A DNA stretch of 64,000 nt from Candidatus Micrarchaeota archaeon (GTDB taxonomy: Archaea > Micrarchaeota > Micrarchaeia > Norongarragalinales > JAPLXB01), in assembly GCA_026396285.1 (NCBI GenBank), contig JAPLXB010000045.1, positions 343-64,342 on the forward strand, given 5' to 3'. The number at the start of each line of letters is the position of its first letter. Positions within the stretch are counted from its first letter, which is position 1. A program made the position numbers and the translations under genes. The notes below the pieces were generated by a model. The model was not told the DNA's origin. It saw only the letters and a list, made by a program, of their open reading frames with translations, and made no database searches. Of the stretch, positions 12,694 through 35,131 are shown in pieces.

Positions 12694-12720
12694 CGGAATA
12701 ACGAATACGGTTTTGGTGAA

Positions 12721-14562: not shown

Positions 14563-14563
14563 T

Positions 14564-17500: not shown

Positions 17501-17980
17501 AAGGGCATCGCGCGCGCCATCATCGTTGAAATGAACGGCGAACTGACGCTCGCCACCGAGGGAAGCAACCTTGAGGAAGTGTTCAAGATACCCGCAGTGG
17601 ACGCGGTGCGCACGAGCACGAACGACATTGTCGAGATATCCAAGGTGCTGGGCATAGAGGCTGCGCGCAACTCCATCATAACCGAGATAGTGAAAGTCCT
17701 CGATGCACAGGATTTGAAAGTGGACCTGAGGCACATCATGCTCATTGCCGACGCGATGACGCTCAAGGGCGAAGTGAAGTCAATCGGCCGCCACGGGCTG
17801 GCAGGCGAAAAGGCGTCTGTCCTGGCGCGCGCGGCGTTCGAGGAGACCGCGAAGCACTTGCTCAAGGCGTGCGTCTACGGCGAAAGCGACCCGCTGAAGG
17901 GGGTCACTGAAAACATAATCATCGGCCAGACCATTCCCTGCGGCACCGGGACAGTAAACCTGGAAATGGACGTCGACTAG
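14564..17980 (+). CDS. rpoA: DNA-directed RNA polymerase subunit A, unsplit (A' and A'' regions in one 1138-aa reading frame)
   Basis: N-terminal Zn motif CKTCGG..CGGHFGH. Catalytic NADFDGDEMN. Bridge helix AKTGYMQRRLINALQDMM. About 50 aa later, with no intervening stop, come the A''-specific AAQSIGEPGTQMTLRTFHYAGV and the C-terminal jaw/cleft. The probable true start is MKAISGIEFG at 14591. Confidence 0.85.
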   Translation: MIGCRCVFVMKAISGIEFGVFSPENVRKMSAVKVTVPDTYDEDGYPISGGLADQHLGVIDPGLKCKTCGGRMKTCGGHFGHIELVRPVVHVGFAKPVYLLLRATCRKCGRAMTAESIEKAKRISECPHCGEQQKTIKFVKPTSFYEEDRRVLPNEVRERLERITDEDLAAWGIKLRPEWMVLTILLVPPVTVRPSITLETGERSEDDLTHKLVDILRINQRLGENIDAGAPQLIIEDLWELLQYHVATFFDNETAGIPPARHRSGRQLKTLFQRLKGKEGRFRYNLSGKRVNFSARTVISPDPMLGINELGIPQEIAKELTLPVSVTEWNKENMKELVKANAEKINYIIRPDGRRKKLIPSNVDEIVAELAPGYVIERQLMDGDLVIFNRQPSLHRVSMMCHSVRVLPGKTFRFNVAVCAPYNADFDGDEMNIHVPQNEEAQSEADILMKVQDQILSPRNSEPLIAPILDQVSGLYLLTIDGTTFTRAEACSLLASAGIVEEVGGDKTTGKELFSFLLPKGFNVEYVNRSKEAVKIKNGKLLSGHVDSKISDLLTKQIFDDFGSEAARKFLDAATRISTEVITRYGLSLSLEDYHLSEEGVKEIRDIWRDGRKKVKSLVQQYREGKLERKPGKTLKETLEELVMNVLEHTRDSCGHHLLHHIKRVPLKAFGAPVNHNSALLMSRAGARGKLLNVVQMAALVGQQAVRGKRMKSGYKNRILPHFKKGDLGDDARGFVSSSYVEGLDPLQYFFHAAGGRDSVVDKGVNPAKTGYMQRRLINALQDMMVTPSRCVKDAEGSIIQFKYGDDGMDIAGKPISPGEPVGVVAAQSIGEPGTQMTLRTFHYAGVASLAQLGFTRLVEVVDARKTPKNPVMEVYLKKEYSKDLDKVKAIASSIEEITVDKIASVKEEFSKKLIRITLDTDALDEMKIKPEEVTEKIKAIEPATTRDKNVITVKTKAEDLKSIRKITTRLKEMTLKGIKGIARAIIVEMNGELTLATEGSNLEEVFKIPAVDAVRTSTNDIVEISKVLGIEAARNSIITEIVKVLDAQDLKVDLRHIMLIADAMTLKGEVKSIGRHGLAGEKASVLARAAFEETAKHLLKACVYGESDPLKGVTENIIIGQTIPCGTGTVNLEMDVD

Positions 17981-18053: not shown

Positions 18054-19229
18054 TTATTCCTTCGCGCGCGCGGCCGCGATTTTCTTGGACAGCGAGTCCA
18101 TGCCCGCCTTCTGCTCGATGAGCGTCTTCCCAAGAGCCACGACCGTGTCATAGAGCGCCTTGTCGAATTCAAGGGCAACCGACTGGGTGGACGAGAACGC
18201 CTTCATCATCTTCGCGAAATCGGCCATCGCGTTCCTCGTCGCCCGCGTGTCCTCCCTGACCGCCGACAACCCGGTTTCAAGGCGCTGGCGCATGCTCGTC
18301 ACGTCAATGAATGAGCGCAAACTGTCCAGTTTCTTCTCGTAAGCGGCGAAGTCGCCCTTGTCCGGGAGCCCCGCGAGCCTTGCATCGACGGCCTTTGACT
18401 GCGCCCTCAGCCCTGCCGCGGCCGACGCGAATTCCCTGGTGTTTTCCGCAACCACTTCTGTGAGGCCGGTCCTCAGCTCCTTTGCCGCTGCCGCGAATTC
18501 CTTGGTGTTTTCAGCCAATGCCTCGCTCAAGTCCGAGCGCAGCGCCTTCATTTCGCTCTTCAGGCCGCCGGCGGCTTCGGCGAACTCGTCGGAAGCCGAG
18601 GAAACAGTATCGTTTAATTTGCCCACTTGGGCAGCTGTCGGGAGCGCCGAAACCTTTTCCTGCAGCGCATCAACCTCCTTCAAAAGTTTTTCAACGGGCT
18701 TCCCGCTCTCTTCAAGGGTCTTGAGGATGTCCTTCCACTCCTCGCGCGACGGGAATTCCTTGAGTTTCTGAACCGACGCCGTCAGCTCCTGTTTCGTCGG
18801 CAGGGCCCCGATTGACTTATCCAACTCGTTCAAGTCGTCGCTGGTCGGCATCGCGAGGATTTTCTTGGAGACGCTGTCAATCGCCGTGCCCACGGACTGC
18901 ACTTGGGTCCTGAGCGCGTTCTTGTTGGCCTCCATCAGCACGTCAACGTCGCGCAAAAAGTCGTCAAAAGAAGTCTTGGAAGGCACGGTCTCCATGCGGG
19001 CTGAAATGATTTTCAGCGCGTTGGATGCGTCGCCCGCGCCGCGGGCCGCCGAGTCGGCGGCGTTGATTATTTTCTCGGAGGTTCCGGAAAAATCGCTTTC
19101 AAGAGCCGTTATTTTCTTCCCGGTCAAGTCGGATGACTTTTTCAACTCGTCCACGGACTCGGACAGGGCATCCACTTTTTTCACGAGCTCCAGGAAAGCC
19201 GCTTCAAGCCGCGCCAGAGTGTCAACCAA
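18054..19229 (-). CDS. coiled-coil protein with internal sequence repeats (391 aa), last gene of the giant-protein operon
   Basis: Almost entirely predicted alpha-helical with heptad character. The segment ENTKEFAAAAKELRTGL is repeated as ENTREFASAAAGLRAQ. No catalytic motifs. The gene is convergent with the rpoA stop. Confidence 0.5.
   Translation of the reverse strand: MVDTLARLEAAFLELVKKVDALSESVDELKKSSDLTGKKITALESDFSGTSEKIINAADSAARGAGDASNALKIISARMETVPSKTSFDDFLRDVDVLMEANKNALRTQVQSVGTAIDSVSKKILAMPTSDDLNELDKSIGALPTKQELTASVQKLKEFPSREEWKDILKTLEESGKPVEKLLKEVDALQEKVSALPTAAQVGKLNDTVSSASDEFAEAAGGLKSEMKALRSDLSEALAENTKEFAAAAKELRTGLTEVVAENTREFASAAAGLRAQSKAVDARLAGLPDKGDFAAYEKKLDSLRSFIDVTSMRQRLETGLSAVREDTRATRNAMADFAKMMKAFSSTQSVALEFDKALYDTVVALGKTLIEQKAGMDSLSKKIAAARAKE
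18412..18520. repeat. ~70-bp imperfect tandem duplication inside the coiled-coil CDS
   Basis: The unit CTGCCGCGGCCGACGCGAATTCCCTGGTGTTTTCCGCAAC (18412..18451) recurs as TTGCCGCTGCCGCGAATTCCTTGGTGTTTTCAGCCAATG (18482..18520). Confidence 0.4.
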
Positions 19230-19260: not shown

Positions 19261-20121
19261 TCAGACGACTGTCGCGGGCTTCTTTTCACTGCCGCCGGCG
19301 CCCGCGGTTACCGGAGTTTTCCTAGCCGCTTCCTCCACTTTAGCCCTAAGTTGCGCGAGTTCCTTGGCCTGCGCAGTCTCCTTGATTTGGACCTTGAGCT
19401 GTTCCACGTCCCTTATCGTGTCGTTGATTTCGCGGAACATGCTCTTCACGTCGTTCGCCAGGCGCAGGTACTCTTCAAAACGTTTCTGGAACTCCACGAA
19501 AATGAATTCCACCTTGTCCGCGTGCTTTTCGGACTCGGCCTCAAGCTTCTTTATAGAAGAAAGCTCGCCCTTGACTTCCTCGTTCAGTTGCAGCAGCGTC
19601 TCCGTGCCCCTGGTCGCCATCAAGTCGTTCCTGACAATCTTCATTTCCTCCCCGAGCTTCTCCTCGATGGTCTCCACTTTTTCAACCATCCCCTTGACAA
19701 CCTCTATTTTCGCGTCAATTTTCTTGACGTCCATTGAGAGCTTTTCCGGCTGGACCGCCTCGACGAGGGCCGACGCCTTCTCCGCCTGCAGCTTCATTTC
19801 CCTGCCCGACTTTTCGCTCTCCAACAGCATTGCCCGCAATTCGCCTATTTCCTCGTTGAGCCGCGCGAATTTTTCGTCGGAAATCTGGCGGTACTGCTTC
19901 AGCGCCTCAATCTGGCCCCTGGCCAGCTCGAGGTCGCGTTCGAGCAGCGCAGCGCCCTTTGCCCCTCCCTGGCCCCTGCCGGGCTCGGGCTTTTCCTCTT
20001 CCTCGGGCGTGTATTTTTCCTCGCCGGAAACCATGGCCAAGTCGGTCATTGTTTCCAGTTCTTCCTCAGTGGGCCCTGTCTTTTTGGAAATCTTTTTCTT
20101 GATGGAATCCAGGAAACCCAT
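19261..20121 (-). CDS. acidic coiled-coil protein (286 aa)
   Basis: Short N-terminal amphipathic segment MGFLDSIKKKISKK, an acidic linker, then about 200 aa of heptad-repeat helix. This is reminiscent of ESCRT-III / PspA-like or archaellum-accessory coiled-coil proteins, but I make no confident family call. Confidence 0.45.
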   Translation of the reverse strand: MGFLDSIKKKISKKTGPTEEELETMTDLAMVSGEEKYTPEEEEKPEPGRGQGGAKGAALLERDLELARGQIEALKQYRQISDEKFARLNEEIGELRAMLLESEKSGREMKLQAEKASALVEAVQPEKLSMDVKKIDAKIEVVKGMVEKVETIEEKLGEEMKIVRNDLMATRGTETLLQLNEEVKGELSSIKKLEAESEKHADKVEFIFVEFQKRFEEYLRLANDVKSMFREINDTIRDVEQLKVQIKETAQAKELAQLRAKVEEAARKTPVTAGAGGSEKKPATVV

Positions 20122-20175: not shown

Positions 20176-20418
20176 TTAATCGCTTTCCTCCACTTCGTTG
20201 ACGTTCCAGGCGCCGCACTTTGGGCACTTGGAGGGTTTTGAAAGCACGACCAGCCGCGAGTTGCCCCAGTCCTCCGGCTCAAGCAGATACTCGTTCCTGC
20301 ACCCGTGGCAAATCACGTAAATGCGGCTTATGCCGCTGGATCTCCCGACCGGGAACAGGTTGGTGCGCCCAATGCCAAGGAACCTGCCGAGCCCGGGCTG
20401 CCTGCCGATGAAAACCAT
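20176..20418 (-). CDS. small zinc-ribbon protein (about 80 aa from the internal ATG)
   Basis: Two CxxC pairs (CHGC ... CPKC) spaced about 40 aa apart. The upstream in-frame extension to 20544 is Gly/Ala/Arg-rich and probably not translated. Confidence 0.5.
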   Translation of the reverse strand: MVFIGRQPGLGRFLGIGRTNLFPVGRSSGISRIYVICHGCRNEYLLEPEDWGNSRLVVLSKPSKCPKCGAWNVNEVEESD

Positions 20419-20573
20419 TCTTTTCCTGCGCTTTTTTGCGGCCGGAAGGCGGCCTGCGGCGTGCCCGGGGCCGCGCCCCCCGTCCCATGCCAAGCCGTCG
20501 CCGGCGGCCGGTCCAGCGTCCCCTGCGCCTTTTTCGTCATCCACAAAACCGCCTTTTCCGGCCGGCGCCCCTT

Positions 20574-23500
20574 TCAGACGCCGTGCTTCTTCGCCTGCGT
20601 CTCCACCTTCTGGGTGAGGGACTCCATGTAAATGTCCACTATGTTGAACGCGCCTTTCTTGAGCTTGTCGCGGACGATGTTCAGTTCCAGTTCAAGGTCA
20701 AGCACGTCCACTCCCTTCGCTTTTATGGCGGCAACCTTCTCCTCCAGCACCTCTATCCGCTGGTTGTACTCGTCGTACTTCTGGAGCTCGGTTTCCGAAA
20801 GGCGGACGATGTTGTGCTGCAGCGCCCTGTAGGTCACGAAGTACGGCGCGCCCCTGTTGTACTCGGGGTTGTGCATCATGCCGCTCCCGATTGCGGACCG
20901 GACGATGCTCCTCGCGGTCTCGTCCCCGAACTTGGTCCTGATACGCTCCAAGTCGCCCTCGTACTTGGTGCGCATCTGGATTTCCGTGGAAATGTTTGCC
21001 TTGATTTCGCCCACGAAGTCGCTCAGCACCTGCGAAATGAGTACCAGGCCCAGGCCCCATTTCCTGTACTCCCTCGCCGCCCGCTCTATCTGCACGAGGC
21101 CCTCGCCGCTTCCCCCGAACTTGGGCAGCAGGCGGTGGACTTCGTCGTAAACGAACAGCACCTTGAGCTTCGGCGACTCCTCGGGCTGGCTGGCAAACAC
21201 CTGCTTGACCGTGTTGGCGTAGAAAGAGTCAACCTGCTGCGGCGTCAGCCGCGAAGTGACGAACACCGTTATTTCGCCGGGCCTCGTCAGTTTCTTGAGG
21301 TCAACCTGCTGGTCGGCGTTCTTGACTACGACGATGTTCCCGTCAAAGGCGCGCGCCTCGCTCAGCGACATCCCGAACTTCTTGTACGCCGCCAGCATCT
21401 CCCTGTTCTTCTGCGGCCTCAGGAAACCGCTCCACTGCGCGGTCGGGTCAAAGACGACCACCGCGATGCCTTTCTTGAGCGCCTCTTCCGCAATCACCTG
21501 CGCCGCCACCGTCTTTCCGGACCCGCTTCCTCCCGCGACCAGCGTGTGCATAGTGAGTTTTTGGAAGTCCACGAACGCCCGCACGTTCGTTTCCGCGATG
21601 AGGCCGAGGAACCCGCCGTCGGGCCCTGGCTGGGGCAGCGTCGCGAAGTCAATTTTCGACAAATACCTTTTCATCTTCGCCTTCTGGTACCGGTCGTAGT
21701 AAGCGTAACTCGTGCCGGCGGTCACTGCGGCTCCGGCGAGCAGCAGGTAGAACAGCGGGACGCCCATGAAACGCATTTCAAGCAGGCCAATCTGCACCTT
21801 GATGTTCGCGAACGCCGAAATCGCGCGCGTCGTGTTCAGGACAAGCCGGTAGTAGGCGGTCGCCTTGAGCATGTAAGTGCCGACCGCAAGGTCCGGCGGC
21901 ACCGTGATTGACTTCGTTATAGTCTGCGAGCTCTCGAACTCAAACGGGTCCCCTGACTCGAAAACCACCGCGTCAGTGTCGTAGTTTATCAGGTAGAGCC
22001 TGACGATGCCGCTGACGCTCTTGGTGGCGCCGGTGTTGAACAAGTTGAGGTCCACCTTGAAACTCTGGCCCGGCGACACGTCGGTCTGGTACGGGACTAG
22101 TTTCAAGTCAATGAACTTCTCCTTCGTCTCGCCAACGCGGATGGTGACTGGCATTACCGCCAAGCCGAGTTCGTTAGTGAAAATAATCTGGCCGTAGTAC
22201 ATGCCTGGTTTTGTGTCCTCGGGGATGCTGATTGCGGCCATTACCTCCGCGGTCTCTCCCGGCGCAAGGGTAACCGAAGGCCTGACCGAGAAGAACGGGA
22301 CCGTGTCGCCGGTCGCCTGGATTGCGACGGTGGTCGCGGAAGCGTTCTGGATGTTCTTCACGCGCAGGGTGACCATCGTCTCCTCGCCAAGGAGCAGTTC
22401 GAGGTAAATGGTCTGGGGATAAATATCGAGCCCGATTTTGTTCTCCATTCCTCCGGTCAGGTTCAGGACGGCTTCCAGCGTCTCGTTCGTGGAGTTCAGT
22501 ATCTCTCCCTTGGCCTGGGAAATGATTTTCTGGACTTCCTTCGCAATCTCCTCGAGCGACGGCCCGATTGCCCCCACCGCCATCGCCGGGGGAGCGGTAT
22601 ACCCTGGCTGAGCCCCTCCACCGCCGCCGTAAACGGTGACGTACGTCGCCCCGGGCGCCACGCCCAACACGCTCTCGCCGGCAGCGTAGGCGCTGAAACC
22701 GGTTATGACCACGGTTATCGAGCCCGGCATCCCTCCCTGCCTGCCGACGACGTTCGTCAACGAAATCCAGCCGCTCGGGCACGCGAGCGAAGTGAAGCCC
22801 CAGTCCGCGCACCGCGCCACGAACACGTTGTCAATGTTGTCGACCTGGGTCACGTCAAACGGCAGCGCCAGCGTGCCCGAAAACGACGGCGCCGGACGGC
22901 CGTCGGTGTAACTGAAGTTCAGCGCGAGGATGAACAGTTTCCTCATTGACGGCACGAGCGCCGCGTACACCGGAACCGAGTCTATGCCGATTGAAAGGTT
23001 CTCCATCTGCGAGAACGACACGCCCGACAACACGAGCGTCGCGTTCAACGCCTTTATCACCACGTCATAGGTCCTGTTGTAGACGTTGACCGAATAGTGG
23101 CCGGTCGCGTTAGTTGAGAAATTCGAGACTGTGACGTTTGTGCCGGGCCTGAGGAGCGTGAAGTTCGTCACCGTCCCCCCGCCAACGGAATTGGCTATGC
23201 GGCCCACGAAGTTCGCGATGTTGTAATAAACCTCGAACGGCGCGGAAACGTTGCGCTGGTTGCCGTCCAAGTCAGTCGCGGACACGACTGCGGTGTACCC
23301 GCCCAGGATGGAGAAGTTGGACGAGACCCTCCACGTGCCGCTCACAGTGTTCCCTGAAACCAGTGACATCGTGTGAGTGGTCACGGTGCTGTCCGGCCAC
23401 GTCACGAACGCGGTGACAGTCGAAACCTGCCTGTTGTCGGAAACGGCGGCTGAAACCACTGCGTTGCTTCCCTGCTGCGCGTCCGTGGTCGTCACGCTCA

Positions 23501-26500
23501 CCGACGGCTGCGTGATGTCCTTGTAGTAGAGGATTGACGCGTTCCTTCTGGTGAATATAACCGGCCCGTTCGGCGACGAGTAGTTTCCAATGACTACGAA
23601 ATCATAGAACTGCGCGTCGGTCTTGGACGGCGCAGTGAACGAAAGGATTTTGGAACTGCCCGCCGCGGTCATGTTGACTTGCGAGGCTTCGGTGTCGTTG
23701 ACGAACACGCGGTAGGTGACGTTTTCCGTGATGTCCGCCGGCGTGTAAAAGTCCACGAGCCGCACGGTGGCGTTGATTGAGTCGCCGGGAATGATTTGCG
23801 GCGGTGCGGAAACGCTTTCCAATAGTATTCCGTAGAAGAACGAGTTGAATGAGATGTTGACTTGCTTGTTGCCACTGCTTTCATTCACCTGCAGCACTCC
23901 TGCATAGTGGGCGTTGGTCTCATTGGCAGTGTAATTCATGCGAATGGCGAACGACTGGCCGCCTGAAAGCGACGTGGACGAGTCGAGCAGGTTCGCGAAC
24001 GTCGTCATGTTTCCAAACAGCCCGAACTGGAAGTTCAGGAACGCGTCAGCGGTACCGGTGTGCGTGATGACCGTGTCGCTGTTGACCTTGTTCTCGTTCG
24101 ACACCGCGTTTATGACCATGGTGTCGCGGCTGAGCGACCAGGAATAGTTCAAAGGCGTCACAACGTTTGCTGTGAATCCCTTCGTGTAGCCCGTTCCCTG
24201 CACGCTGCACGAAAAGCTCCTGCCCCCGACTCCCCCGCTGGAGGACACGCCATAGTCCACTCCGACGGTCGTGGATATGTTCACCGGGTTGTCCAAGGCG
24301 ACTGTCCGCGGCGAAGGCGAATAGGAAACCGTGACATTGGGGCTGATTGACGTGGTGGAGACTGCGAATGGAACGTTGTCGTTGCCCGTCGCCTCTACTG
24401 TGAGGTTTTGCACCGTGCTGTGGCCGTGCTCGATGGTCAGCGAAGCCGGGAACGTGACGGTGAAGTTCGGGTTGGACAAGACGCTTATCAAAACCGGGGA
24501 TGCCGTGTAAATGCCGCTGACGCCGTTCGGATTAACCCACTTGACTATTGGGTTGAAGTAGTAGGTTCCAAGGGCCCTGGGCGGCACGCTGACGTTGACG
24601 AACGTGCTGAACCAGCCCGGAGCGAGGTTCGCGTATGAAAGGTTCGTGTAACTGAAGCCGCTCGTGTTCGCGCCGCTGAACGAGCCGGTCACGTTCACCG
24701 AATAGCCCTTCACGTTGCCGCCGTTTACGATGAGAAACGGGATGGAAACGTTCTTTCCAACTGATTTCGTCACGTTCGCGACGCTCACCGCCTGGCCCGA
24801 GGCATTAATGTTCGTGGTGGGAACCACTTGGAACGAGAACTGCGTGGAATTAAGCTGGCCCGTGACGTCATTCACTCCAAAGGTCACGGCGTAGTCGTAA
24901 ACTCCCGTGATGTTCGTGTTGCCGAAGTCCACGTAAAACCTCCTGACGTCCTTGCAGAGGCCGCCGCAGTAGATGTCCGGGTCCTCCCAGTCGCTTGGGG
25001 GCGCAAAAGACCAGGAATAGCCGGGGGCCGTGACGTTGAAGAAGGCGGTCGAAGCGTTCAAGCCGTTGATTTCGTCGTCCGTGGCCCACACCTCAAGGGT
25101 GACGGACTTGTTGAATTCGACGAAACTCCTCCTAACTCCTTCCGTGATTGTTGACACGTTTATGAACTGGGGCGGCGCGTTGCTGACGTTGAAGAACACG
25201 TAAACGTCCCTGTTCGTCGGGTCCGCGGAACCGCTTTGCAAATGCGCCCTGATGCCATACCCGGGGGAGGCGTTGCTGCTCTCCTGGCCACTCTGGCCGA
25301 AGCAGATGTTTACAGAAGAGCCTTTTGAAACGGAAACCGTGTTGTTGTTGCAGTTGACTCCGCCGATGTTGATGTTCGGGCCGCACGTGCCTATGTAAGT
25401 GCAGTTCTTGTACCCGGGAACCGCGTCATACGACACCGAAAAGGTCAGGTCGATGTTTCCCGGGTTTTCAATGGTGTAATTTGCTATGATTCCCTTCTGG
25501 TTCAGCGCGAACGCGTTGGACTGGTTCGCGGACGGCACGATGACCCACGACGCGTTCGTGAGGACGTTGACGTTCACTTGAAGCGACTGGTTCACGTCCT
25601 GGCTCCCAGAGTAATACCCGGTCGTGTTCAGGAATCCATGGTATGCGCCGGGCGCCGCCTGGGCCGGGACCGACACGCTGAACGTCACGGTCTTCGTCGA
25701 GCCGGAGTTGGGAATCTTGGTGAAGCTCGTCCACTGGCTCGGGGAGAAGGAAATCCAAGAGGAGTTTATGGCGGTGGCAGTGAAGTTGTTGTTGACCGGG
25801 CCGAGCACAACGTTCCCGTCATTCGTCACCCCGATGGCTATTGTCTGCGACTGTCCCGGATACAAGTTCATGTCGAGCGAGGGAGTGATGTTGTATGACA
25901 GGTGCTTCGTCACCGCGCCGCCGATTTGCGTGGATGTGGTTATTGTCGTGTTGGATAAGTCGTTGTTCGTCCACGTCCCGTTCCAAGTCACCTGGTAATA
26001 CTGGCCCGGATTCAGCCCGGCGGGCAGCGTGACGTTGAAAACGCTGTAACAGTTGCCGCTCTGGATGAGTATGGCGCCGCACGTGGTGCCAAGTTCCACG
26101 ATAGACTCCATTAAGCCTATCTGGGACACGCCGATGTCCGGGTACGTCATGTCCGCCTTGTTGCTGTTGTTAAGACTAACAGTGATGTTCACTGAATAAG
26201 GCACGCTCGGCGTGTCAACGGTCGCGGGCGCGTTGAGCGTCCCGTCCGCCAGCTGTTCCTGGAACCAATCCTGGCCCGCCTTTTCTGCATAATCGTATTT
26301 CGTGCTGCTGTTGATGCCGGTCGCGAGTCGCCGGTCGAGTTGTAGAGCGTGATGCTCCGGGCGCCGTTCAACTGCGGCGCTGCCGACGCGTTGACCCACG
26401 TGATGTAAACCTCGTTCAGGAACGGCGTCTTGGAAGAGTCGTTTGAAGCGAAAACCGCGCGGTACCTCAGGTAACGCGAAACCGGTGCCTTGGCGAAGTC

Positions 26501-26633
26501 GCCGTAAAAGCCGCCGTACGCGGCAATCGTGGAAGAATTCGAATAGGAGTCGAGGGGCGTCCACTTGTAACTGTTGTTCGACGACGACGTGTACATGGTG
26601 ATGTTCGTTCCCGGCGGCTCGGTCGTCCACCAC
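20574..26633 (-). CDS. giant surface protein, C-terminal portion (ORF 2 of 2): Asn/Thr/Ser-rich Ig-like region, transmembrane helix, cytoplasmic HerA/FtsK-superfamily ATPase
   Basis: The first ~100 aa of the ORF (MVDDRAAGNEHHHVHVV...) are out-of-frame junk. Genuine sequence starts at ...ATGINSSTKYDYAEKAGQDW. A single hydrophobic helix GVPLFYLLLAGAAVTAG lies near the C-terminus. It is followed by a 379-aa cytoplasmic domain with Walker A LVAGGSGSGKT (21510..21533), Walker B VLFVYDEVH (21135..21158), and an arginine-finger region REYRKWGLGLVLISQ typical of DUF87/HerA/VirB4-like ATPases. Confidence 0.8.
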   Translation of the reverse strand: MVDDRAAGNEHHHVHVVVEQQLQVDAPRLLFEFFHDCRVRRLLRRLRQGTGFALPEVPRGFRFKRLFQDAVPERGLHHVGQRVGSAAVERRPEHHALQLDRRLATGINSSTKYDYAEKAGQDWFQEQLADGTLNAPATVDTPSVPYSVNITVSLNNSNKADMTYPDIGVSQIGLMESIVELGTTCGAILIQSGNCYSVFNVTLPAGLNPGQYYQVTWNGTWTNNDLSNTTITTSTQIGGAVTKHLSYNITPSLDMNLYPGQSQTIAIGVTNDGNVVLGPVNNNFTATAINSSWISFSPSQWTSFTKIPNSGSTKTVTFSVSVPAQAAPGAYHGFLNTTGYYSGSQDVNQSLQVNVNVLTNASWVIVPSANQSNAFALNQKGIIANYTIENPGNIDLTFSVSYDAVPGYKNCTYIGTCGPNINIGGVNCNNNTVSVSKGSSVNICFGQSGQESSNASPGYGIRAHLQSGSADPTNRDVYVFFNVSNAPPQFINVSTITEGVRRSFVEFNKSVTLEVWATDDEINGLNASTAFFNVTAPGYSWSFAPPSDWEDPDIYCGGLCKDVRRFYVDFGNTNITGVYDYAVTFGVNDVTGQLNSTQFSFQVVPTTNINASGQAVSVANVTKSVGKNVSIPFLIVNGGNVKGYSVNVTGSFSGANTSGFSYTNLSYANLAPGWFSTFVNVSVPPRALGTYYFNPIVKWVNPNGVSGIYTASPVLISVLSNPNFTVTFPASLTIEHGHSTVQNLTVEATGNDNVPFAVSTTSISPNVTVSYSPSPRTVALDNPVNISTTVGVDYGVSSSGGVGGRSFSCSVQGTGYTKGFTANVVTPLNYSWSLSRDTMVINAVSNENKVNSDTVITHTGTADAFLNFQFGLFGNMTTFANLLDSSTSLSGGQSFAIRMNYTANETNAHYAGVLQVNESSGNKQVNISFNSFFYGILLESVSAPPQIIPGDSINATVRLVDFYTPADITENVTYRVFVNDTEASQVNMTAAGSSKILSFTAPSKTDAQFYDFVVIGNYSSPNGPVIFTRRNASILYYKDITQPSVSVTTTDAQQGSNAVVSAAVSDNRQVSTVTAFVTWPDSTVTTHTMSLVSGNTVSGTWRVSSNFSILGGYTAVVSATDLDGNQRNVSAPFEVYYNIANFVGRIANSVGGGTVTNFTLLRPGTNVTVSNFSTNATGHYSVNVYNRTYDVVIKALNATLVLSGVSFSQMENLSIGIDSVPVYAALVPSMRKLFILALNFSYTDGRPAPSFSGTLALPFDVTQVDNIDNVFVARCADWGFTSLACPSGWISLTNVVGRQGGMPGSITVVITGFSAYAAGESVLGVAPGATYVTVYGGGGGAQPGYTAPPAMAVGAIGPSLEEIAKEVQKIISQAKGEILNSTNETLEAVLNLTGGMENKIGLDIYPQTIYLELLLGEETMVTLRVKNIQNASATTVAIQATGDTVPFFSVRPSVTLAPGETAEVMAAISIPEDTKPGMYYGQIIFTNELGLAVMPVTIRVGETKEKFIDLKLVPYQTDVSPGQSFKVDLNLFNTGATKSVSGIVRLYLINYDTDAVVFESGDPFEFESSQTITKSITVPPDLAVGTYMLKATAYYRLVLNTTRAISAFANIKVQIGLLEMRFMGVPLFYLLLAGAAVTAGTSYAYYDRYQKAKMKRYLSKIDFATLPQPGPDGGFLGLIAETNVRAFVDFQKLTMHTLVAGGSGSGKTVAAQVIAEEALKKGIAVVVFDPTAQWSGFLRPQKNREMLAAYKKFGMSLSEARAFDGNIVVVKNADQQVDLKKLTRPGEITVFVTSRLTPQQVDSFYANTVKQVFASQPEESPKLKVLFVYDEVHRLLPKFGGSGEGLVQIERAAREYRKWGLGLVLISQVLSDFVGEIKANISTEIQMRTKYEGDLERIRTKFGDETARSIVRSAIGSGMMHNPEYNRGAPYFVTYRALQHNIVRLSETELQKYDEYNQRIEVLEEKVAAIKAKGVDVLDLELELNIVRDKLKKGAFNIVDIYMESLTQKVETQAKKHGV

Positions 26634-29600
26634 TTAACCAAGTCCCAGTTCACTGCTTCGCCGGCGTCAATCGTGTGCTCGTAGTAGCCGGCAGTGTTCC
26701 CGGTTGAGAGGTTGATGTTTCCGGAGTTTATGGAGACGCTCGCATTCGAATAAGTTCCGCCGGTCCAGTCCGCGGAACCCGTTTCGGTGATGGTGTTGTT
26801 GGCCCACGAGTCGTTCCAGTAATACGCGCTGACGTTCACGTGCACGCCGCCGATGTCACTCCAAGTGGCGGTCTTGGCGAAGCCCGCAACCGTCGGCGGC
26901 GCCCAGGCGAAGAACGGGTCGGGCGAGTAAGTGCCGCTGCACTGGCGGCACGTGCGAGTGAAATTGATTGTGCCGTTTGTCCCGCTGCCCGACGGACTAT
27001 ACCCGCCGAGGGCGGTAACTGGACCGTAGTAAAGCAGCGAGGAGAACAACGCGTTTATTTTTCCGGCGTTACCGCCCGTGACAGTACTCCCGCCTTGTCC
27101 GCCGTTCGCATCAATAGTCTCAAAAATCAGCATGGTTCCGGTAAGGTTTACTGTCACGTTTCCTCCATTTCCTCCATATACCTTCCACTCAGTACTGCTG
27201 GCGCCGCATACCTTAATTTGATGCAAGTATGCGGTCTGTCCAGTCAACTCTACAGTTCCACCCGACCCGCAAACACTGGCAACAGTCCCACCACTATTCC
27301 ATCCCACGGCGCCAGTCGAAGTTATCGTCGTCAAGTTTATCGTCTGCGCCGCCACCCTAATCGCTCCTCCTGAGCCGCCATAGCCAGCATAGCCGCCAGC
27401 GCCAACGCCGTCTCCGCCAATTGATTTTATTTCAGTCCCATTTATCGCCTGGGCGATTACTGTAATGTTTCCAGTCCCTCCGCCATACGAGGTGCCAGCG
27501 CCATTCGTGCACTGCGCATAGCCTCCGACTGATTGAATGATCCCTAAGACCAGGATTTGAGACGAATTCATTAGTATGTTGCCTCCGCGCCCGCCATGGG
27601 CAAAGGAATATGTCCCGCTTGTGCTGCCGTAAGCGGCGCCTCCGCTCGAAGTTATGTTTGCCACTACGGTCTGCTGTGTGGAATTAATTGTTATAATTCC
27701 GCCTGAACCTCCATGGGGGTTGCCGCCGCCGGTATGATACGCTGACCCGCCATTAGACCTGACTAAGGTCGTTACGGTTATCGTCGGCGCTATCAGTTCG
27801 ACATTTCCTCCATCAGGCCCATAAACATCAAGTGGAGTGCCGTAGGAATACAAACCGGCTGAAACGTCTATTTGGGAAAGCCTAAGCGAACTGCCGGCGT
27901 TTATGTTCACGTCGCCTCCTTTGCCAGCGAGATAGTCGACTGCGCCGTTGGAATTGCCTCCGTTCGCGTTAACCGACGCCGCGGTGACATTGCCGGTCGC
28001 GTTTATTTTCAACGGGCCCCCCGGGCTGCCGGCTGTGGTTATCGTCGTGGCGTTTACCGAACCGTTCGCGTTAAACCTCACCGTTCCACCCGAACCGTAA
28101 CCGTAGGACGCACCAGATCCTCCTGATGTTGTTATTGTGCCCGCGTTTATTGTTCCGTTCGCGTTTATTGTGAGGTTTCCTCCCGCCCCCCCGAAGCCAT
28201 AGCCCGCTCCTCCTGTTGACGATATTGTTGAAACGTTTACTCCCCCGCCCGCGTTTATCGTGACCACGTCGGCATTACTCCCATCAAAAGCCGGAATAGC
28301 ACCATTTTTCGCTCCTCCGTCTGCAGCAATTGAATTGACTGTGACCTGGCCTGTTGCATTTATTGTCACTGCCCCTCCCTGACCAGTGTAGTACAGGCCG
28401 CCCTCGCTCGCCGTTCTAATGTTCGTGACTGTTACTGAGCCGTTCGCGTTTATCGTCAGCGGCCCTCCCGAGTAGCTTCCATCGTTGGCTGACGTGCCTG
28501 TTCTAGTTCCTGTTCCTATGTTCGTGGCTGTTACTGAGCCGTTCGCGTTAATCGTCACCGGCCCTCCAGAGCCGCCGTAGAAATCGGAGAGCTGCCCGTC
28601 TTCGGTTGATATCGTCGTGACGTTTATCGCGCCGTTCGCGTTCAGCGTTACGCTCCCGCCGCTGGACTGGTACCGGCCGCCGGCTCTCGCACTTATCAGG
28701 GAAGCTTTTATCGTGCCTGACGTGTTTATTTCAATGGAGCCACCATTCCCCCCGCCGGAGTTAAATTGTGAGCGGTTGCCGCCCATCGCCGTTATCGTGG
28801 TCACGTTCACTGGGCCGCTAGCGTTTAGCCTGATGCTTCCTCCAGACCCTGGATTATCCGGACCGGTTATGCCTGATGCGGTTATTGTCGTGCCGTTAAT
28901 TTGCTGCGCGTTTATGTCAATCGTGCCTCCATAATTGCCACGGCTCCGCGCGTCTATCGACGCTACATTGACCGCGCCCGTCGCGTTGATATAGACATTT
29001 CCCGGTAGTCCGTAACCGCTGAAAACAGTGTACTGATTTACTGTCGTTATCGTTCCTGCATTTATTGTCTGTGCAGTCAGACTGACATTTCCACTTCCTC
29101 CTGCTGCAGCGCCGTTTTTCTTGGTGGTGTCTATCGCATCCGGGTTTAAGGAATTTGCCCTGATTAAAAGATTGGTGCTGTGCGCGGTTATGCTGCCGGA
29201 GAACGTGTCCGAGGCATTCAAATGAACGTCTCCATAAGCCGGAATGCTTTGACTGCCGGTGAAGAAAAAGTTGCTGAAGGCCATGTTTGTTGAGTTGATG
29301 CCCAGCGGGTTCGAATCATGCCAAAACGACGATGAATAAAACGAGGCGTTCTGGTTCACCTGGAGCGACAGCGCCCCCGCAGAGTATACTGTCGCGCCGC
29401 CCGAGACGTTCAGGTACTCGTATGTCCTCGTCGCGGCCGCCATGTTGCACTGGATTCCATAGATTTTCGCGTTCGAGCCCTGGGCAGGCCCGCAGTTGAG
29501 CGAGTCGGGCTCGAGCCACGGCACGGCGTTAAATGACGGGTTGTTCGCGTAAAGCACGCTCGTGTCGTTTCCCTGCCAGTTGGGGAGGGTGAAGTAATAC

Positions 29601-31867
29601 GCGTCTGCCCCGGTCCAAGAGCCTCCTGGCGAGAACGACGTGGCGGCGAGGGAAACATTGACTATGTACCCGGTGCTGCCACTAACTACAGCGGTGGAGG
29701 AAAACGACGCGTTGGCCGCGGAAATGTCGATGTTGCCACCAGGGGAGGACCTGATAGTCCCCGCCTGATTGTAGTTGTTCGCAAAAAACCTTATCGAGTG
29801 AAGGTAGCCGCCTGACCCTTCGCCAACGAATCCGCCGTTTTCTATCGTCACGTTGCCGGAGAAATTGAAAGTGTGCGTGGTGTCGCTAACAAGGCCCGAG
29901 GTCCTGGTTATCCCCGCCCCGTTTTTGACGACGAGGTTGGTTCCGTTTATCGCGTAGTTTACGACCCTGATGTAGTGGAATTGGGTTATGTTGCACGTGT
30001 CCCCTCCCTCAAGGCTTCCTTGGTCGCACGCGAACACGGGAATCGTGAACTGGTCGATGAGCGAGAAGCTTGCATACCCGGTTTTTGAGCACGTGACGTT
30101 AAAGGACGCCGCGCCGTTCAGGTTGTTGGGGTTGACGGTCTTGTTGTACTCGTAAAGGCCCGAGGAGGCGTTGTAAGCCATGCTCGCGTCCGCGGCCCAC
30201 GAGCCGGCCGAGTTTTCGGAAAACAGGCACGTTGCGCCAGTGACTGGGTTGCCGGCAGCGCCCGTGTAATTCGCGTAAAACACTGGCTGGCGCGAGTAAT
30301 TCAACTGCTGTGCGATTGGGAGGTTTTCCATCGAGTCCCAAATCGCGAGGGCGGACGAGTAGTTTATCTGGAATGATACGTTGCTGACGACCGGGCTGGC
30401 CTGCGTGGAGTTGCTCGTGAGGTACATTTTGTACCGCATGTACCTCGCCTGGATTGGGGCCGAGGACGCGCTGGTTATCGCCTGGCCCGACGACGTGTAA
30501 TAGGCGGTCGGGTCAGCGAGCGGCCCGTGCCAGCCGTTCCACGTTACGCCATTGACTGAGTAATTGAGCTGGAAACTGAGGGCGGTGCCCGCCGGCACCA
30601 TGGCGTTGTAGAAGATTTTTTCCCACCTAACGCTGCTGCCGGCGTCGAAAGTGCTTGACTCGTAAGTGCCGTTCAGGTAATACCCCGGCGAACCGGTCGG
30701 GGTGTATGTCCACGTTTCGCCGTTGTTGCCGGTGGCGTTGTTTCCGCCGAACATGAGGAAAATCTTTTGCGCCGCGTAATACGCCATCGAGTGGTTCGCG
30801 CGCACAGGCGGCGGCGCCGGGTAAGTCACGTCAGACCACGTGTCGCCTCCCACGTCATAGGTGCGGATTGAATCAAGGTAACTTGCGCCGGTGTATCCGC
30901 CGAATTCAAGGAAAAGCCCCTGGTCTTGGTCAAACAACATTGTGTGGAACGCTTTCGCCCCCCCGGCTGCTTTCGCTCCCCAGGCGTTGGTGTTTGAATA
31001 GTATTCGCGCGTGTCGCTCAGGTAATCGGTTCCGTTGTATCCGCCGTCGAGTATGAACGTGCCTGAAGAAGTGGAGTATTCAAGCGCTGCGCCATAACGC
31101 GGCGAAGGCCAGTTTACTCCGAACGTCGTGTAGTTCACCCACGTGTTCTGCGTGAAATTGAATGCCCACAACTCGTTGAAAACGTTGGTGCCGTTGGTCC
31201 CGCCGAACAAGAAAATCGACTGGTTGGAGCCATGGTAAGCCATCGAGTAGTGATAGAGGGCTGGCGGGGATGCGGCGGGGCTGAGTAGCGTCCACGTGTT
31301 GTCCGAATAATTATAGGCCCACGTGTCGCTGAAAACGTTGGTGCCGTTCGTTCCGCCGAAAAGTATGATCCTGCCGCTGAGCGGGTCGTAAACCATTTTC
31401 ATGCCATAGCGCGGGGACGGGGCCGTGGACGGGTTGCGGTCAGTCCAGTTGTTGTTTGTGGAAAAATTATATGCCCGCGTGTCATTCAACGGGCCTGTGC
31501 CGTAGCCTCCGAACAACACCATGATTGCGGCGTTGTTTTCATAAGCCATTGCAAACGAGTTCCTGTCCGACGGCGAAGCCGCGGGCGTGAACTGCGTCCA
31601 GTTGACGAACTGCTTGAGCGTGAGGTTAGTGACTGAAACGTTCATCGTGTTGCTGAACGTGCCTTGGGTCCATTTCGCGGTGTCCTGGGACAGGTTTTTC
31701 AACGGCCCCTCCGCCATGAACAATCCGGTCACGGGGATGTTCACGCCCTCGAAATACTGGTAGAACAAGCCGATGCCGGCGACCACTGCGGCGCACGCTA
31801 ACACGATGGCAAGCCTCTTAGCCCACGGACTCTTGTTTCCACGTTTTTGGGGGGACATGCAGCCCAC
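26189..31867 (-). CDS. giant surface protein, N-terminal portion (ORF 1 of 2): signal anchor, Kelch beta-propeller, then Gly-rich beta-helix-like repeat array
   Basis: Signal-anchor helix LAIVLACAAVVAGIGLF. Five or six Kelch-like blades with F/LFGG and W-x-Y motifs (aa ~95..390). About 650 aa of ~30-aa repeats of the form GG.GG.VTINANG.V.VT.I.T. N-x-S/T sequons throughout. The last ~45 aa of this ORF (RPASTAARNTIMQKRRARIG...) are Arg-rich out-of-frame read-through. The true continuation is in the overlapping frame of the next ORF. Confidence 0.8.
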   Translation of the reverse strand: MGCMSPQKRGNKSPWAKRLAIVLACAAVVAGIGLFYQYFEGVNIPVTGLFMAEGPLKNLSQDTAKWTQGTFSNTMNVSVTNLTLKQFVNWTQFTPAASPSDRNSFAMAYENNAAIMVLFGGYGTGPLNDTRAYNFSTNNNWTDRNPSTAPSPRYGMKMVYDPLSGRIILFGGTNGTNVFSDTWAYNYSDNTWTLLSPAASPPALYHYSMAYHGSNQSIFLFGGTNGTNVFNELWAFNFTQNTWVNYTTFGVNWPSPRYGAALEYSTSSGTFILDGGYNGTDYLSDTREYYSNTNAWGAKAAGGAKAFHTMLFDQDQGLFLEFGGYTGASYLDSIRTYDVGGDTWSDVTYPAPPPVRANHSMAYYAAQKIFLMFGGNNATGNNGETWTYTPTGSPGYYLNGTYESSTFDAGSSVRWEKIFYNAMVPAGTALSFQLNYSVNGVTWNGWHGPLADPTAYYTSSGQAITSASSAPIQARYMRYKMYLTSNSTQASPVVSNVSFQINYSSALAIWDSMENLPIAQQLNYSRQPVFYANYTGAAGNPVTGATCLFSENSAGSWAADASMAYNASSGLYEYNKTVNPNNLNGAASFNVTCSKTGYASFSLIDQFTIPVFACDQGSLEGGDTCNITQFHYIRVVNYAINGTNLVVKNGAGITRTSGLVSDTTHTFNFSGNVTIENGGFVGEGSGGYLHSIRFFANNYNQAGTIRSSPGGNIDISAANASFSSTAVVSGSTGYIVNVSLAATSFSPGGSWTGADAYYFTLPNWQGNDTSVLYANNPSFNAVPWLEPDSLNCGPAQGSNAKIYGIQCNMAAATRTYEYLNVSGGATVYSAGALSLQVNQNASFYSSSFWHDSNPLGINSTNMAFSNFFFTGSQSIPAYGDVHLNASDTFSGSITAHSTNLLIRANSLNPDAIDTTKKNGAAAGGSGNVSLTAQTINAGTITTVNQYTVFSGYGLPGNVYINATGAVNVASIDARSRGNYGGTIDINAQQINGTTITASGITGPDNPGSGGSIRLNASGPVNVTTITAMGGNRSQFNSGGGNGGSIEINTSGTIKASLISARAGGRYQSSGGSVTLNANGAINVTTISTEDGQLSDFYGGSGGPVTINANGSVTATNIGTGTRTGTSANDGSYSGGPLTINANGSVTVTNIRTASEGGLYYTGQGGAVTINATGQVTVNSIAADGGAKNGAIPAFDGSNADVVTINAGGGVNVSTISSTGGAGYGFGGAGGNLTINANGTINAGTITTSGGSGASYGYGSGGTVRFNANGSVNATTITTAGSPGGPLKINATGNVTAASVNANGGNSNGAVDYLAGKGGDVNINAGSSLRLSQIDVSAGLYSYGTPLDVYGPDGGNVELIAPTITVTTLVRSNGGSAYHTGGGNPHGGSGGIITINSTQQTVVANITSSGGAAYGSTSGTYSFAHGGRGGNILMNSSQILVLGIIQSVGGYAQCTNGAGTSYGGGTGNITVIAQAINGTEIKSIGGDGVGAGGYAGYGGSGGAIRVAAQTINLTTITSTGAVGWNSGGTVASVCGSGGTVELTGQTAYLHQIKVCGASSTEWKVYGGNGGNVTVNLTGTMLIFETIDANGGQGGSTVTGGNAGKINALFSSLLYYGPVTALGGYSPSGSGTNGTINFTRTCRQCSGTYSPDPFFAWAPPTVAGFAKTATWSDIGGVHVNVSAYYWNDSWANNTITETGSADWTGGTYSNASVSINSGNINLSTGNTAGYYEHTIDAGEAVNWDLVKWWTTEPPGTNITMYTSSSNNSYKWTPLDSYSNSSTIAAYGGFYGDFAKAPVSRYLRYRAVFASNDSSKTPFLNEVYITWVNASAAPQLNGARSITLYNSTGDSRPASTAARNTIMQKRRARIGSRNSWRTGRSTRPRPLTRRACLIQ
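26950..29000. repeat. in-frame tandem repeat array (~30-aa Gly-rich beta-helix-like units) within the giant gene
   Basis: At least 20 successive units such as GGSVTLNANGAINVTTISTEDG, GGPVTINANGSVTATNIGTG and GGAVTINATGQVTVNSIAADGG. The DNA is correspondingly repetitive (many GGx GGx ... ACC ATC AAC GCx runs) and generates the spurious antisense ORFs at 27872..28126 and 28617..28934. Confidence 0.6.
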
Positions 31868-31884
31868 TTTTTAGGGTTTTCCGC

Positions 31885-31960
31885 TTTTTTAATGGTTACC
31901 TGCCTGGGGCTGGGCGCAAGAAATAAAAACCAGTTTGTTAAACAAGATTTAACAATGTTA
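31885..31960 (-). promoter_or_regulatory. putative promoter/operator of the giant-protein operon
   Basis: On the gene strand, a TATA-like ATTAAAAAAG (31885..31894) sits 18 to 27 nt upstream of the ATG. Further upstream are two adjacent near-palindromes, TGTTAAACA (31936..31944) and TAACAATGTTA (31950..31960), that share the half-site TGTT/AACA. Confidence 0.3.
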
Positions 31961-34377: not shown

Positions 34378-35031
34378 ATGGAAGGGCAGGAAAACGTTGA
34401 AAAGGGCAAAATCGCGGAACGCGGCGGAGAGACGAAACTCTTCGGCAAATACTCGTTCGAGGGCATTGAAGTCAGGGACCCGGGCATCAGGCAGTACGCG
34501 TCGTTCACGCCCGTCGTTTACCCGCACACTTTCGCGAGGCACGCCAACAAGCAGTTCGCGAAATCAAAGGTCAACGTGGTCGAACGGCTCGCGAACAAGC
34601 TCATGCGCGGCGGGACCGGCGGCAAGCTCGGCGGCAAACTCATACGCACGCACGGGAAGCTCCAGGGCAAGAAACTCCGCGTGCTGAAAATAATGGAGGA
34701 CGCGTTCGCCATCATACTCGCGCAGACCAAGCAGAACCCGGTCCAGGTTCTCGTGAGGGCGATTGAAAACAGCGCGCCCCGCGAGGACGTGACGAGCGTG
34801 CGCTTCGGCGGCATCGCCTACCAAGTCGCAGTCGACGTGGCCGCGCAGAGGCGGCTTGACATGGCGCTGAGGAACATCACGGTCGCGGCAATCATGGGCT
34901 CGTTCAACAAGAAGCCCACGCTGGCGGAGACGCTGGCGAACGAAATCATCCTCGCGGGCAAGGGCGACCCGAACAGCTACGCGATAAAGCGCAGGAACGA
35001 CACTGAGAGGATGTCGCGGAGCGCGAGATGA
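34378..35031 (+). CDS. rps7: 30S ribosomal protein S7 (uS7)
   Basis: Matches LFGKYSFEGIEVRDPGI...VNVVERLANKLMRGG...DVTSVRFGGIAYQVAVDVAAQRRLDMALRNI. Confidence 0.9.
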   Translation: MEGQENVEKGKIAERGGETKLFGKYSFEGIEVRDPGIRQYASFTPVVYPHTFARHANKQFAKSKVNVVERLANKLMRGGTGGKLGGKLIRTHGKLQGKKLRVLKIMEDAFAIILAQTKQNPVQVLVRAIENSAPREDVTSVRFGGIAYQVAVDVAAQRRLDMALRNITVAAIMGSFNKKPTLAETLANEIILAGKGDPNSYAIKRRNDTERMSRSAR

Positions 35032-35131
35032 TAATGGTTGCCAAGGCCGCAGGGGGCGCTGGCTCCCTGCTGGCGCGGAGCGCAAGGCAAGGAGTAAAAC
35101 GTCACTAAGCGTTTTTTTGAAGTGATTTTCC

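Follow-up and report, generated by a model that had tools for sequence, protein, structure and literature searches.

Does a single archaeal gene join a giant extracellular region to a cytoplasmic ATPase, and has a protein of this kind been described before? The question is raised by a feature on a 64,000-nucleotide stretch of DNA from a Candidatus Micrarchaeota archaeon (assembly GCA_026396285.1, contig JAPLXB010000045.1, positions 343 to 64,342), which is referred to here as the window. The feature lies at positions 20574-31867 on the minus strand, as do all of its parts given below. The original prediction had read it as one giant open reading frame (ORF) for a surface protein that ends in a transmembrane (TM) helix and a HerA/FtsK-type ATPase, a layout for which it knew of no described family. 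Results from homology searches, structure prediction and codon-usage analysis make it probable that the window carries a Micrarchaeota member of the SPEARE family, that its gene was ancestrally a single one of ~3,756 codons, and that a -1 frameshift at 26321-26329 interrupts the copy in the assembly. A mechanism of action can be inferred from the parts of the protein.

Membership in the SPEARE family

The name SPEARE was given in 2019 by Hamm et al. to very long nanohaloarchaeal proteins with an extracytoplasmic bulk, a C-terminal TM helix and a conserved cytoplasmic region, and similar intracellular regions were already listed in that study for Woesearchaeota, Aenigmarchaeota, Micrarchaeota and Altiarchaeales (PMC6642349). 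A re-analysis by Reva et al. in 2023 recognized a Sec signal, immunoglobulin (Ig)-like repeats, a TM helix, a VirB4/TraG-like ATPase and a coiled coil but neither a nuclease nor a protease (PMC10266531). Reported sizes are 5,998 amino acids for NAR1_1133, up to 8,553 for Nanopetramus SG9, 9,409 for SVXNc_0300 and 8,880 for BNXNv_0298 (PMC6642349, PMC10266531), and short versions of ~650-720 amino acids (655-717) have been accepted as SPEARE proteins (PMC6642349).

The window protein is homologous to the founding member of this family. Its last 684 residues align with the SPEARE protein of Nha. antarcticus (NAR1_1133, transcribed from SI Fig. S18 of PMC6642349) at 35% identity over 647 residues (BLASTP, 387 bits, E 8e-130), and this alignment covers a helix, two Ig domains, the TM helix, the ATPase and the coiled coil. 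A further 405 residues of the proximal ectodomain align with the same protein at 23% identity. Because of this homology the window protein is a SPEARE-family member, and the statement that no described family has such a layout consequently fails, the architecture having been published in 2019 and 2023. The feature consists of two overlapping ORFs in different frames (ORF1, 26189-31867, 1,892 codons; ORF2, 20574-26633, 2,019 codons), and ORF2 also shares 31-38% identity over 1,400-2,050 residues with seven further proteins (P0193, P0195, P0196, P0197, P0198, P0203 and P0207).

An exhaustive HMMER search of 1.84 billion representatives (clustered at 50% identity) returned 1,222 matches to the tail with a cut-off of E ≤ 1e-3, of which 359 reached E ≤ 1e-30. 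Among the best 150 of the 1,222, lengths span 404-6,253 amino acids, and in these the ATPase is invariably C-terminal. The suggested co-occurrence of ATPase tail and giant ectodomain in other genomes is seen in single uninterrupted ORFs of 2,000-6,253 amino acids. Relatives of the tail found by a word-indexed search number in the hundreds and come from Woesearchaeota, Pacearchaeota, Nanoarchaeota, Aenigmarchaeota, Micrarchaeota and Altiarchaeales. That listing, with members of at most 801 amino acids, gave the impression that giants are rare, which was overturned by the exhaustive search and by ORF analysis of the loci: of 80 metagenome loci, 35 have an ORF that runs in frame for 2,000 codons or more, and several of these ORFs are still open past 4,000 codons at the flank edge. 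Complete ORFs of 2,531, 2,700 and 3,670 amino acids were confirmed to carry Pfam DUF87 at their end, and a hydrophobic signal opens 19 of the 20 complete family ORFs. Furthermore, the giants are not chimeras, as the 3,276-residue P0203 belongs to a cluster of nine near-identical proteins that recurs in several sources (JGI/IMG, ENA, Logan and GEM).

Short forms of ~775 amino acids consist of a signal peptide, two Ig-like domains, the TM helix and the ATPase. These forms (671-801 amino acids) usually follow a large ORF, of 1,000 to at least 2,757 codons, whose end coincides with or overlaps the start of the short gene. The occurrence of giant fusions alongside short forms behind large secreted-protein genes indicates that an invariant core (helix, two Ig-like domains, TM helix, HerA-clade ATPase and coiled coil) goes together with a variable adhesin, through fusion or through coupling in an operon, the adhesin part being fused to the core or encoded just upstream and freely exchanged between lineages. 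The closest relatives of the window protein share 58-61% identical tails, and two relatives of ~60% identity (P0002 and P0003) are genuine TM+ATPase-only proteins, P0002 having no adjacent ectodomain gene. A scan of a genome collection with the tail found an unrelated gammaproteobacterial match only. The module is a large DPANN-wide family and no nanohaloarchaeal oddity.

Reading frames and the question of one gene or two

The length of the feature, 11,294 nucleotides, is not a multiple of 3, and its two ORFs overlap by 445 nucleotides. ORF1, counted from the ATG at 31858 (26189-31858, 1,889 codons), encodes the signal anchor and the distal ectodomain and is identical to the public protein P0121 (MCX6768009.1). 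Its final ~46 codons (26189-26326) are an out-of-frame read-through, Arg-rich in translation and unlike protein, with negative codon log-odds after 26326, and the first ~105 residues of ORF2 are likewise Arg-rich and not protein-like. The coding part of ORF2 (20574-26326, ~1,913 codons) encodes the proximal ectodomain, the TM helix and the ATPase. ORF2 is open without interruption over 6,060 nucleotides, and as all three elements lie within it, their joining in one polypeptide is independent of the frameshift. Translation and hydropathy reveal no signal sequence of its own in ORF2. The frame-joined reconstruction is ~3,756 amino acids long.

The position of the frame switch was located using a sliding scan and per-codon log-odds, with a table trained on the unambiguous parts of the giant gene. 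The coding frame passes from that of ORF1 to that of ORF2 at 26321-26329 (GGCGACTCG|CGACCGGC; …GGC GAC TCG | CGA CCG GC…), and coding potential continues across the switch without gap or drop. Because the frame changes at this point, the one-gene reading requires a -1 shift (one base missing or two extra), which separates the N-terminal 1,846 codons from the remainder. The site is GC-rich and free of homopolymers, and it lies within an imperfect direct repeat, CGACCGGC…CGACCGGC. The sole nearby homopolymer, AAAA at 26284, is ~40 nucleotides beyond the codon-usage switch. Programmed -1 frameshifting was considered and rejected, as the whole 445-nucleotide overlap contains no slippery heptamer of the form X XXY YYZ.

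Two relatives bear directly on the ancestral state. In P0195 (5,286 amino acids), a high-scoring segment pair over query residues 1629-2134 spans the junction at residue 1843 and is followed by colinear alignment at 37% identity over ~1,800 residues. In P0197 (5,743 amino acids), the corresponding segment pair covers query residues 1674-2134, crosses the junction likewise and is colinear downstream. Each of these proteins is called as a single gene, on contigs of 37.5 kb and 70.8 kb, respectively. The colinear alignment of these uninterrupted relatives across the shift point indicates that the single-gene architecture is ancestral. The original prediction of one giant ORF thus does not hold for the assembly, in which there are two ORFs and a -1 frameshift near 26325.

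It could instead be thought that ORF1 and ORF2 are two separately translated genes, an anchored adhesin and an anchor-ATPase that form a two-component system. The short members of the family, which usually lie directly behind a large ORF or overlap its end, offer a model for such an arrangement. In addition, a conserved module of ~1,870 residues starts near 26207, and the 2,064-residue P0196 consists of this module with its own signal peptide; the break in the window falls ~40 residues before the start of the P0196 alignment. Proteomics has shown that the SPEARE protein of Nha. antarcticus is made, with its ectodomain and cytoplasmic parts in different size fractions (PMC6642349), as might be expected of two components. 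However, no start codon with a signal sequence is present for ORF2 near the junction. Lacking a signal sequence, the ~1,500 ectodomain-type residues of ORF2, which contain 63 N-x-S/T sequons, could not by themselves reach the outside and would stay cytoplasmic. Moreover, there is no intergenic spacer, the frame jumps within ~9 nucleotides, and P0195 and P0197 run colinearly over the junction in single ORFs. Separate translation as two genes is considered highly improbable.

A second alternative is that the frameshift is real in the organism, so that the gene is a recently inactivated pseudogene or yields truncated products only. The products would be an N-anchored adhesin of 1,846 residues that ends in 46 nonsense residues and, perhaps, a TM+ATPase protein with an internal start at MRFMGVPLF…, similar to P0002 and P0003, whose TM+ATPase-only form at ~60% identity lends this idea some support. 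The same shift is present in the public assembly, where P0121 ends at the ORF1 stop, and its location away from a homopolymer, the lack of a slippery heptamer and the lack of a signal sequence in ORF2 all fit a genuine lesion. A second split locus and split pairs in other metagenome-assembled genomes (MAGs), described below, are in agreement with this. On the other hand, both halves (1,846 and 1,913 codons) are intact apart from the one shift and have normal codon usage, and the ATPase keeps every family-invariant residue, so that any inactivation would have to be of very recent date. Moreover, the same picture would arise from a consensus error, or from heterogeneity between strains, at the repeated CGACCGGC. 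Inactivation or truncation in the organism is considered unlikely.

The second split member, L069, carries its break within 5580-5790. The upstream ORF there, at least 1,891 codons long, stops at 5678, and the ATPase-bearing ORF (2,033 codons, without a signal sequence) is open from 5666 in the -1 frame, which confines the shift, also -1, to 12 nucleotides (CGTAATGATATAA). In Ca. Nanopetramus SG9, two SPEARE proteins have consecutive locus tags and one of them has an N-terminal TM domain (PMC6642349). The literature also holds two proteins from the EX4484-52 MAG KA24, of 8,146 amino acids (with an N-terminal TM helix) and 3,105 amino acids (with a C-terminal one), whose adjacency is not stated. 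Splits into N-anchored and C-anchored parts thus recur in the window and L069, possibly in SG9 and possibly in KA24. Such breaks might be no error at all, reflecting a -1 shift that is reversible (phase-variable) or bypassed in translation, an idea that is regarded as very doubtful. If true, the shift would set the share of adhesin that is tethered to the ATPase motor as opposed to free or separately membrane-anchored.

The public annotation of the locus is incomplete. ORF1 is recorded as MCX6768009.1 (1,889 amino acids), and the ATPase piece, under the consecutive accession MCX6768008.1 (366 amino acids), is named 'DUF853 family protein' and begins directly after the TM helix. Between them, ~5 kb of coding sequence (~21700-26190), comprising ~1,650 ectodomain and TM codons of ORF2, is without any public protein record. 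Because the annotation of this MAG skips this sequence and labels the tail 'DUF853 family protein', surveys of annotated proteins will under-count SPEARE-type genes.

Domain architecture and proposed mechanism

The layout of the protein has been probed using profile searches, repeat parsing and structure prediction, and the predicted series of domains (signal anchor, Kelch propeller, Gly-rich repeats, Asn/Ser/Thr-rich Ig-like region, TM helix and ATPase) was found in full and in that order. At the C-terminus, a HerA-clade P-loop ATPase occupies 20829-21617, with the Walker A motif at 21510-21533, Walker B at 21135-21152 and the sensor ISQ at 21030-21047. The sequences GGSGSGKT (Walker A), LFVYDEVH (Walker B) and LVLISQ (sensor) all lie in family-invariant columns, and the ATPase retains every invariant residue of a 63-sequence family alignment. 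Invariant Arg/Lys residues include R404, R499, K503, R516, R519, R522 and K523 (numbered along the 684-residue core, 20577-22628). An AlphaFold2 monomer model of the last 684 residues, built from an alignment with 62 relatives (predicted local distance difference test score 85.9), shows a core made up of a long helix, two Ig-like sandwiches, the TM helix, a RecA-like ATPase and C-terminal helices. The last of these (helices 612-681 of the model) form a helical or coiled-coil tail at 20577-20795 that aligns with the SPEARE C-terminus, for which a coiled coil has also been described (PMC10266531). Foldseek and a PDB profile search concur in placing HerA nearest and VirB4 close, and all top structural matches belong to the FtsK-HerA superfamily, the hallmarks of which (RecA-like core, Walker A, Walker B of the form hhhhDE, and a Gln sensor ending the next strand) are all present. 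These results confirm the original assignment of the tail to the HerA/FtsK/VirB4 superfamily. No curated family model was reached, the HerA, VirB4, TraD and CedD models scoring 16-37 bits against cut-offs of 366-970.

In 2019 the cytoplasmic region of SPEARE was read as a type III restriction enzyme (PMC6642349), and by this reading the tail would be a nuclease that degrades imported host DNA. The tail does have weak Pfam matches to ResIII (PF04851, E 0.0068) and DEAD (E 1.4e-4), as might be expected from that proposal. However, both are below their cut-offs and cover only the P-loop core that is common to many NTPases, and Pfam and NCBIfam profile searches found no nuclease domain in the tail. 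Structure and profile searches lead instead to the ring translocases HerA, VirB4 and FtsK, and Reva et al. came to the same view (PMC10266531). The restriction-endonuclease reading was rejected, as the Pfam, NCBIfam and structural matches all argue against it, and its probability is close to nil.

The single TM helix (GVPLFYLLLAGAAVTAGTSYAYY; 21696-21764, ORF2 residues 1624-1646) corresponds to helix 292-319 of the AlphaFold2 core, and its position is kept across the family. It is preceded by a membrane-proximal module (21795-22556) that contains a poly-Gly stretch, a long helix and two Ig-like (NEW3/CARDB-like) β-sandwiches. Further out, the Asn/Ser/Thr-rich region of ~1,500 residues has weak NEW3/Ig-like Pfam matches. 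An internal MRKLFILALNF motif is found near ORF2 residue 1243 (about 22905), ~380 residues upstream of the TM helix and near the place of the signal peptide in short members; it may be a vestigial short-form start or due to chance.

In the distal part, an N-terminal hydrophobic signal anchor or signal peptide (AKRLAIVLACAAVVAGIGLFYQYF; 31751-31822, 24 residues, ORF1 residues 16-39) follows a Lys/Arg-rich stretch and has a hydropathy of 2.19 over 19 residues. A Kelch β-propeller (30716-31525, residues 115-384) is clearly recognized (Pfam PF24681, E 1.9e-37; PF24981, 5.9e-31; Kelch_1/3/4/6) and, of the distal ectodomain, no other part has homologues in the databases. Next to it lies a first jelly-roll-like module (…ARYMRYKMYLTSNS…; 30359-30685) with a weak, sub-threshold discoidin-like match (PF00754, E 0.006) and a motif that recurs in the second module. 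About 22 Gly-rich repeats of ~30 residues (GGx[IV]x[IL]NAxGx[IV]x[VT]xx[IV]…; 27059-29095, residues 925-1603) were delimited by repeat parsing; they have no Pfam match and are likely to adopt a β-helix fold. Similar Gly-rich repeats can be seen by eye in the Nha. antarcticus protein, the BLAST similarity to the window repeats not being significant. The second jelly-roll-like module (…RYLRYRAVFASNDSSKTPFLNEVYITW; 26396-26767) lies just upstream of the frameshift and aligns with a module of P0195 and P0197 in the segment pair that continues over the junction. A homologue search with the whole 3,082-residue ectodomain recovered relatives for the Kelch region only, none with DUF87 and none over the junction. 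One protein from this search (P0129, 2,848 amino acids) has Kelch and FG-GAP/VCBS repeats together with a KaiC-like ATPase (PF06745) and DUF835, and it may represent another family in which a giant ectodomain is fused to an ATPase in the cytoplasm.

Sequon counts are consistent with the predicted topology, with 138 N-x-S/T sites in the 3,320-residue ectodomain and 1 in the 373-residue cytoplasmic tail, although the 'several hundred' sequons of the original prediction come down to 138. The intact protein is predicted to be a type I membrane protein. The N-terminal signal or anchor would send ~3,300 residues outside via Sec, where heavy N-glycosylation is predicted. The distal, lineage-variable part (Kelch propeller, discoidin-like modules and Gly-rich repeats) would bind the host surface, held out by a conserved proximal stalk of Ig-like domains that would end in the helix and two Ig-like domains at the membrane. 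The TM helix would connect this stalk to the cytoplasmic HerA-clade ATPase with its coiled-coil tail. By analogy with every characterized FtsK-HerA ATPase, the tail is predicted to assemble into a ring, with a hexamer as the most likely form, and a hexameric ring would bring six ectodomains together at the site of contact. ATP might then power either the passage of a polymer (DNA or protein) across the symbiont membrane or mechanical work on the ectodomain, and the protein encoded by a downstream coiled-coil gene probably docks on the coiled-coil tail. The adhesion and DNA/protein-transfer roles put forward in the original prediction correspond to those that the literature already proposes for SPEARE, including the secretion 'straw' of Reva et al. 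(PMC10266531).

The ATPase might alternatively serve its own protein as a dedicated assembly platform, acting in the export, folding, anchoring or turnover of the ectodomain or of an upstream partner. The invariable tie, by fusion or translational coupling, between the ATPase-TM-2xIg core and a large variable secreted protein would be explained in this way, and no cargo or channel genes other than the coiled-coil gene are conserved nearby. However, Sec-dependent export needs no such motor, and TM+ATPase-only members without an adjacent ectodomain gene exist (P0002). We know of no precedent for such a role among FtsK-HerA ATPases. A platform function is judged unlikely.

Several points weigh against a single SPEARE protein that works as proposed here. 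The gene is broken in the assembly, and consequently ordinary translation cannot make the full-length protein; the public annotation also splits it. No homologues were detected for the Gly-rich repeats and most of ORF1 past the Kelch propeller, and as the distal ectodomain is without detectable homologues, its role as an adhesin is suggested by composition and analogy. A Pfam scan of the window ectodomain gave no laminin-G match even at E ≤ 1. A ring of six single TM helices presents no obvious conduit, and no other secretion-system or DNA-uptake genes lie beside the giant gene in the window.

Neighboring genes and comparison with known systems

Upstream of the giant gene, a TATA-like, AT-rich element (ccATTAAAAAAgc; 31880-31910, minus strand) was read from the sequence ~30-40 nucleotides before the ATG and is a possible archaeal promoter of a short-leader transcript. 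Downstream, a gene at 19261-20121 (minus strand) encodes a Glu/Lys-rich coiled-coil protein of 286 amino acids with no Pfam match. This gene is kept at all four close loci (the window and its three closest relatives) with 40-44% identity and is the constant downstream partner in the clade of the window. The next ORF (18054-19229, minus strand), a coiled-coil protein of 391 amino acids, weakly resembles the C-terminal half of a 630-residue protein (E 0.003), suggesting that the coiled-coil partner may be split or duplicated in the window. Between the giant gene and the coiled-coil gene lies a small ORF (20176-20544, minus strand) with a zinc-ribbon pattern (CHGC…CPKC) at its C-terminus; as the N-terminal half resembles out-of-frame high-GC sequence, translation probably begins at an internal start. 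The small ORF is absent from locus L086, where the gap is only 99 nucleotides.

No neighbors are shared between the window and three distant family loci. In the Woesearchaeota-type loci L001 (6760-7473) and L003 (8821-11046), one to three KaiC-like ATPase genes (PF06745/DUF7125) follow short members; these genes are absent from the window. At L088 (9104-10315), a 403-residue DUF87 paralogue without TM helix or ectodomain is encoded ~1 kb downstream of the gene for a 2,064-residue giant. This paralogue is 47% identical to the window tail and recalls the second ATPase downstream of nanohaloarchaeal giants.

The giant gene sits on the opposite strand as an insertion between an RNA polymerase cluster (11140-17980, plus strand) and the S7 and EF-2 genes (34378-37321). 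Within the cluster, rpoB is split into two ORFs (517 and 613 amino acids), and Rpb1 domains 1-5 occur in one ORF of 1,138 amino acids, unlike the usual archaeal A'/A'' pair. A 520-residue protein encoded at 8804-10366 (minus strand) combines an N-terminal PIN domain with a T2SSE-type ATPase and belongs to the archaeal PIN-ATPase branch of the FtsK-HerA superfamily. An Orc1/Cdc6 homologue at 841-2061 (minus strand) suggests that a replication origin may be nearby.

Among known ATPases, FtsK, Streptomyces TraB and EccC/EssC lack a large ectodomain and possess multiple TM helices or ATPase domains in tandem; the window protein differs from FtsK in having no gamma domain, and Pfam FtsK_SpoIIIE gives no match. 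VirB4 and TrwB-VirD4 (TraG) are membrane-associated and power macromolecule transport between cells, and a likeness of the SPEARE ATPase to them has been described (PMC10266531). Unlike these proteins, the window protein has no CagE/TrbE/VirB N-terminal domain, the window has no type IV secretion system genes, and HerA is the closer match. NCBIfam scores are 15.8 bits against a cut-off of 643 for VirB4_CagE and 28 bits against 366 for TraD, and PF02534 and PF10412 do not reach their cut-offs. HerA proteins, translocases that form rings, act in the archaeal and bacterial HerA-NurA end-resection helicase and as anti-phage partners of Sir2 and DUF4297, and they share the Walker A, Walker B and sensor Gln with the window tail. 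In contrast to HerA, the tail has no HAS-barrel N-terminal domain, the TM helix and ectodomain standing in its place, and it scores 18-31 bits against the NCBIfam HerA cut-offs of 800-970. No NurA, Mre11 or Rad50 is encoded among the window neighbors.

The closest comparison is with the nanohaloarchaeal SPEARE proteins themselves. These differ from the window protein in host lineage, the latter being from Micrarchaeota, neither acidic nor halophilic, shorter (~3,756 amino acids) and interrupted by a frameshift. ORF2 alone, with ~1,913 coding codons, already has the SPEARE topology of an extracytoplasmic bulk and one C-terminal TM helix, whereas the whole protein has it only after frame correction, the 3,756-residue form requiring the -1 shift. 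All SPEARE ectodomains were reported to contain laminin-G with multiple adhesion domains (PMC6642349). The window protein carries a Kelch propeller and its own Gly-rich repeats instead, with no laminin-G, protease-like or toxin-like segment detected in its distal ectodomain; laminin-G is a descriptive feature of nanohaloarchaeal SPEARE and not of the conserved core. In SVXNc and BNXNv, a VirB4-like second ATPase is encoded downstream (PMC10266531), whereas the window has none there and has the conserved coiled-coil gene instead.

The shared features are extensive. Both the SPEARE proteins and the window protein have a signal, a giant adhesin-type ectodomain, a poly-Gly stretch with a helix, two Ig-like domains, one TM helix, a P-loop ATPase and a coiled coil. 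Both families are found in DPANN archaea, and both include short versions and split pairs of N-anchored and C-anchored proteins. To an architecture that is already in the literature, the window copy contributes comparative detail and no new principle, and it joins the SPEARE-type proteins that are the leading candidates for how genome-reduced DPANN archaea seize and exploit their hosts.

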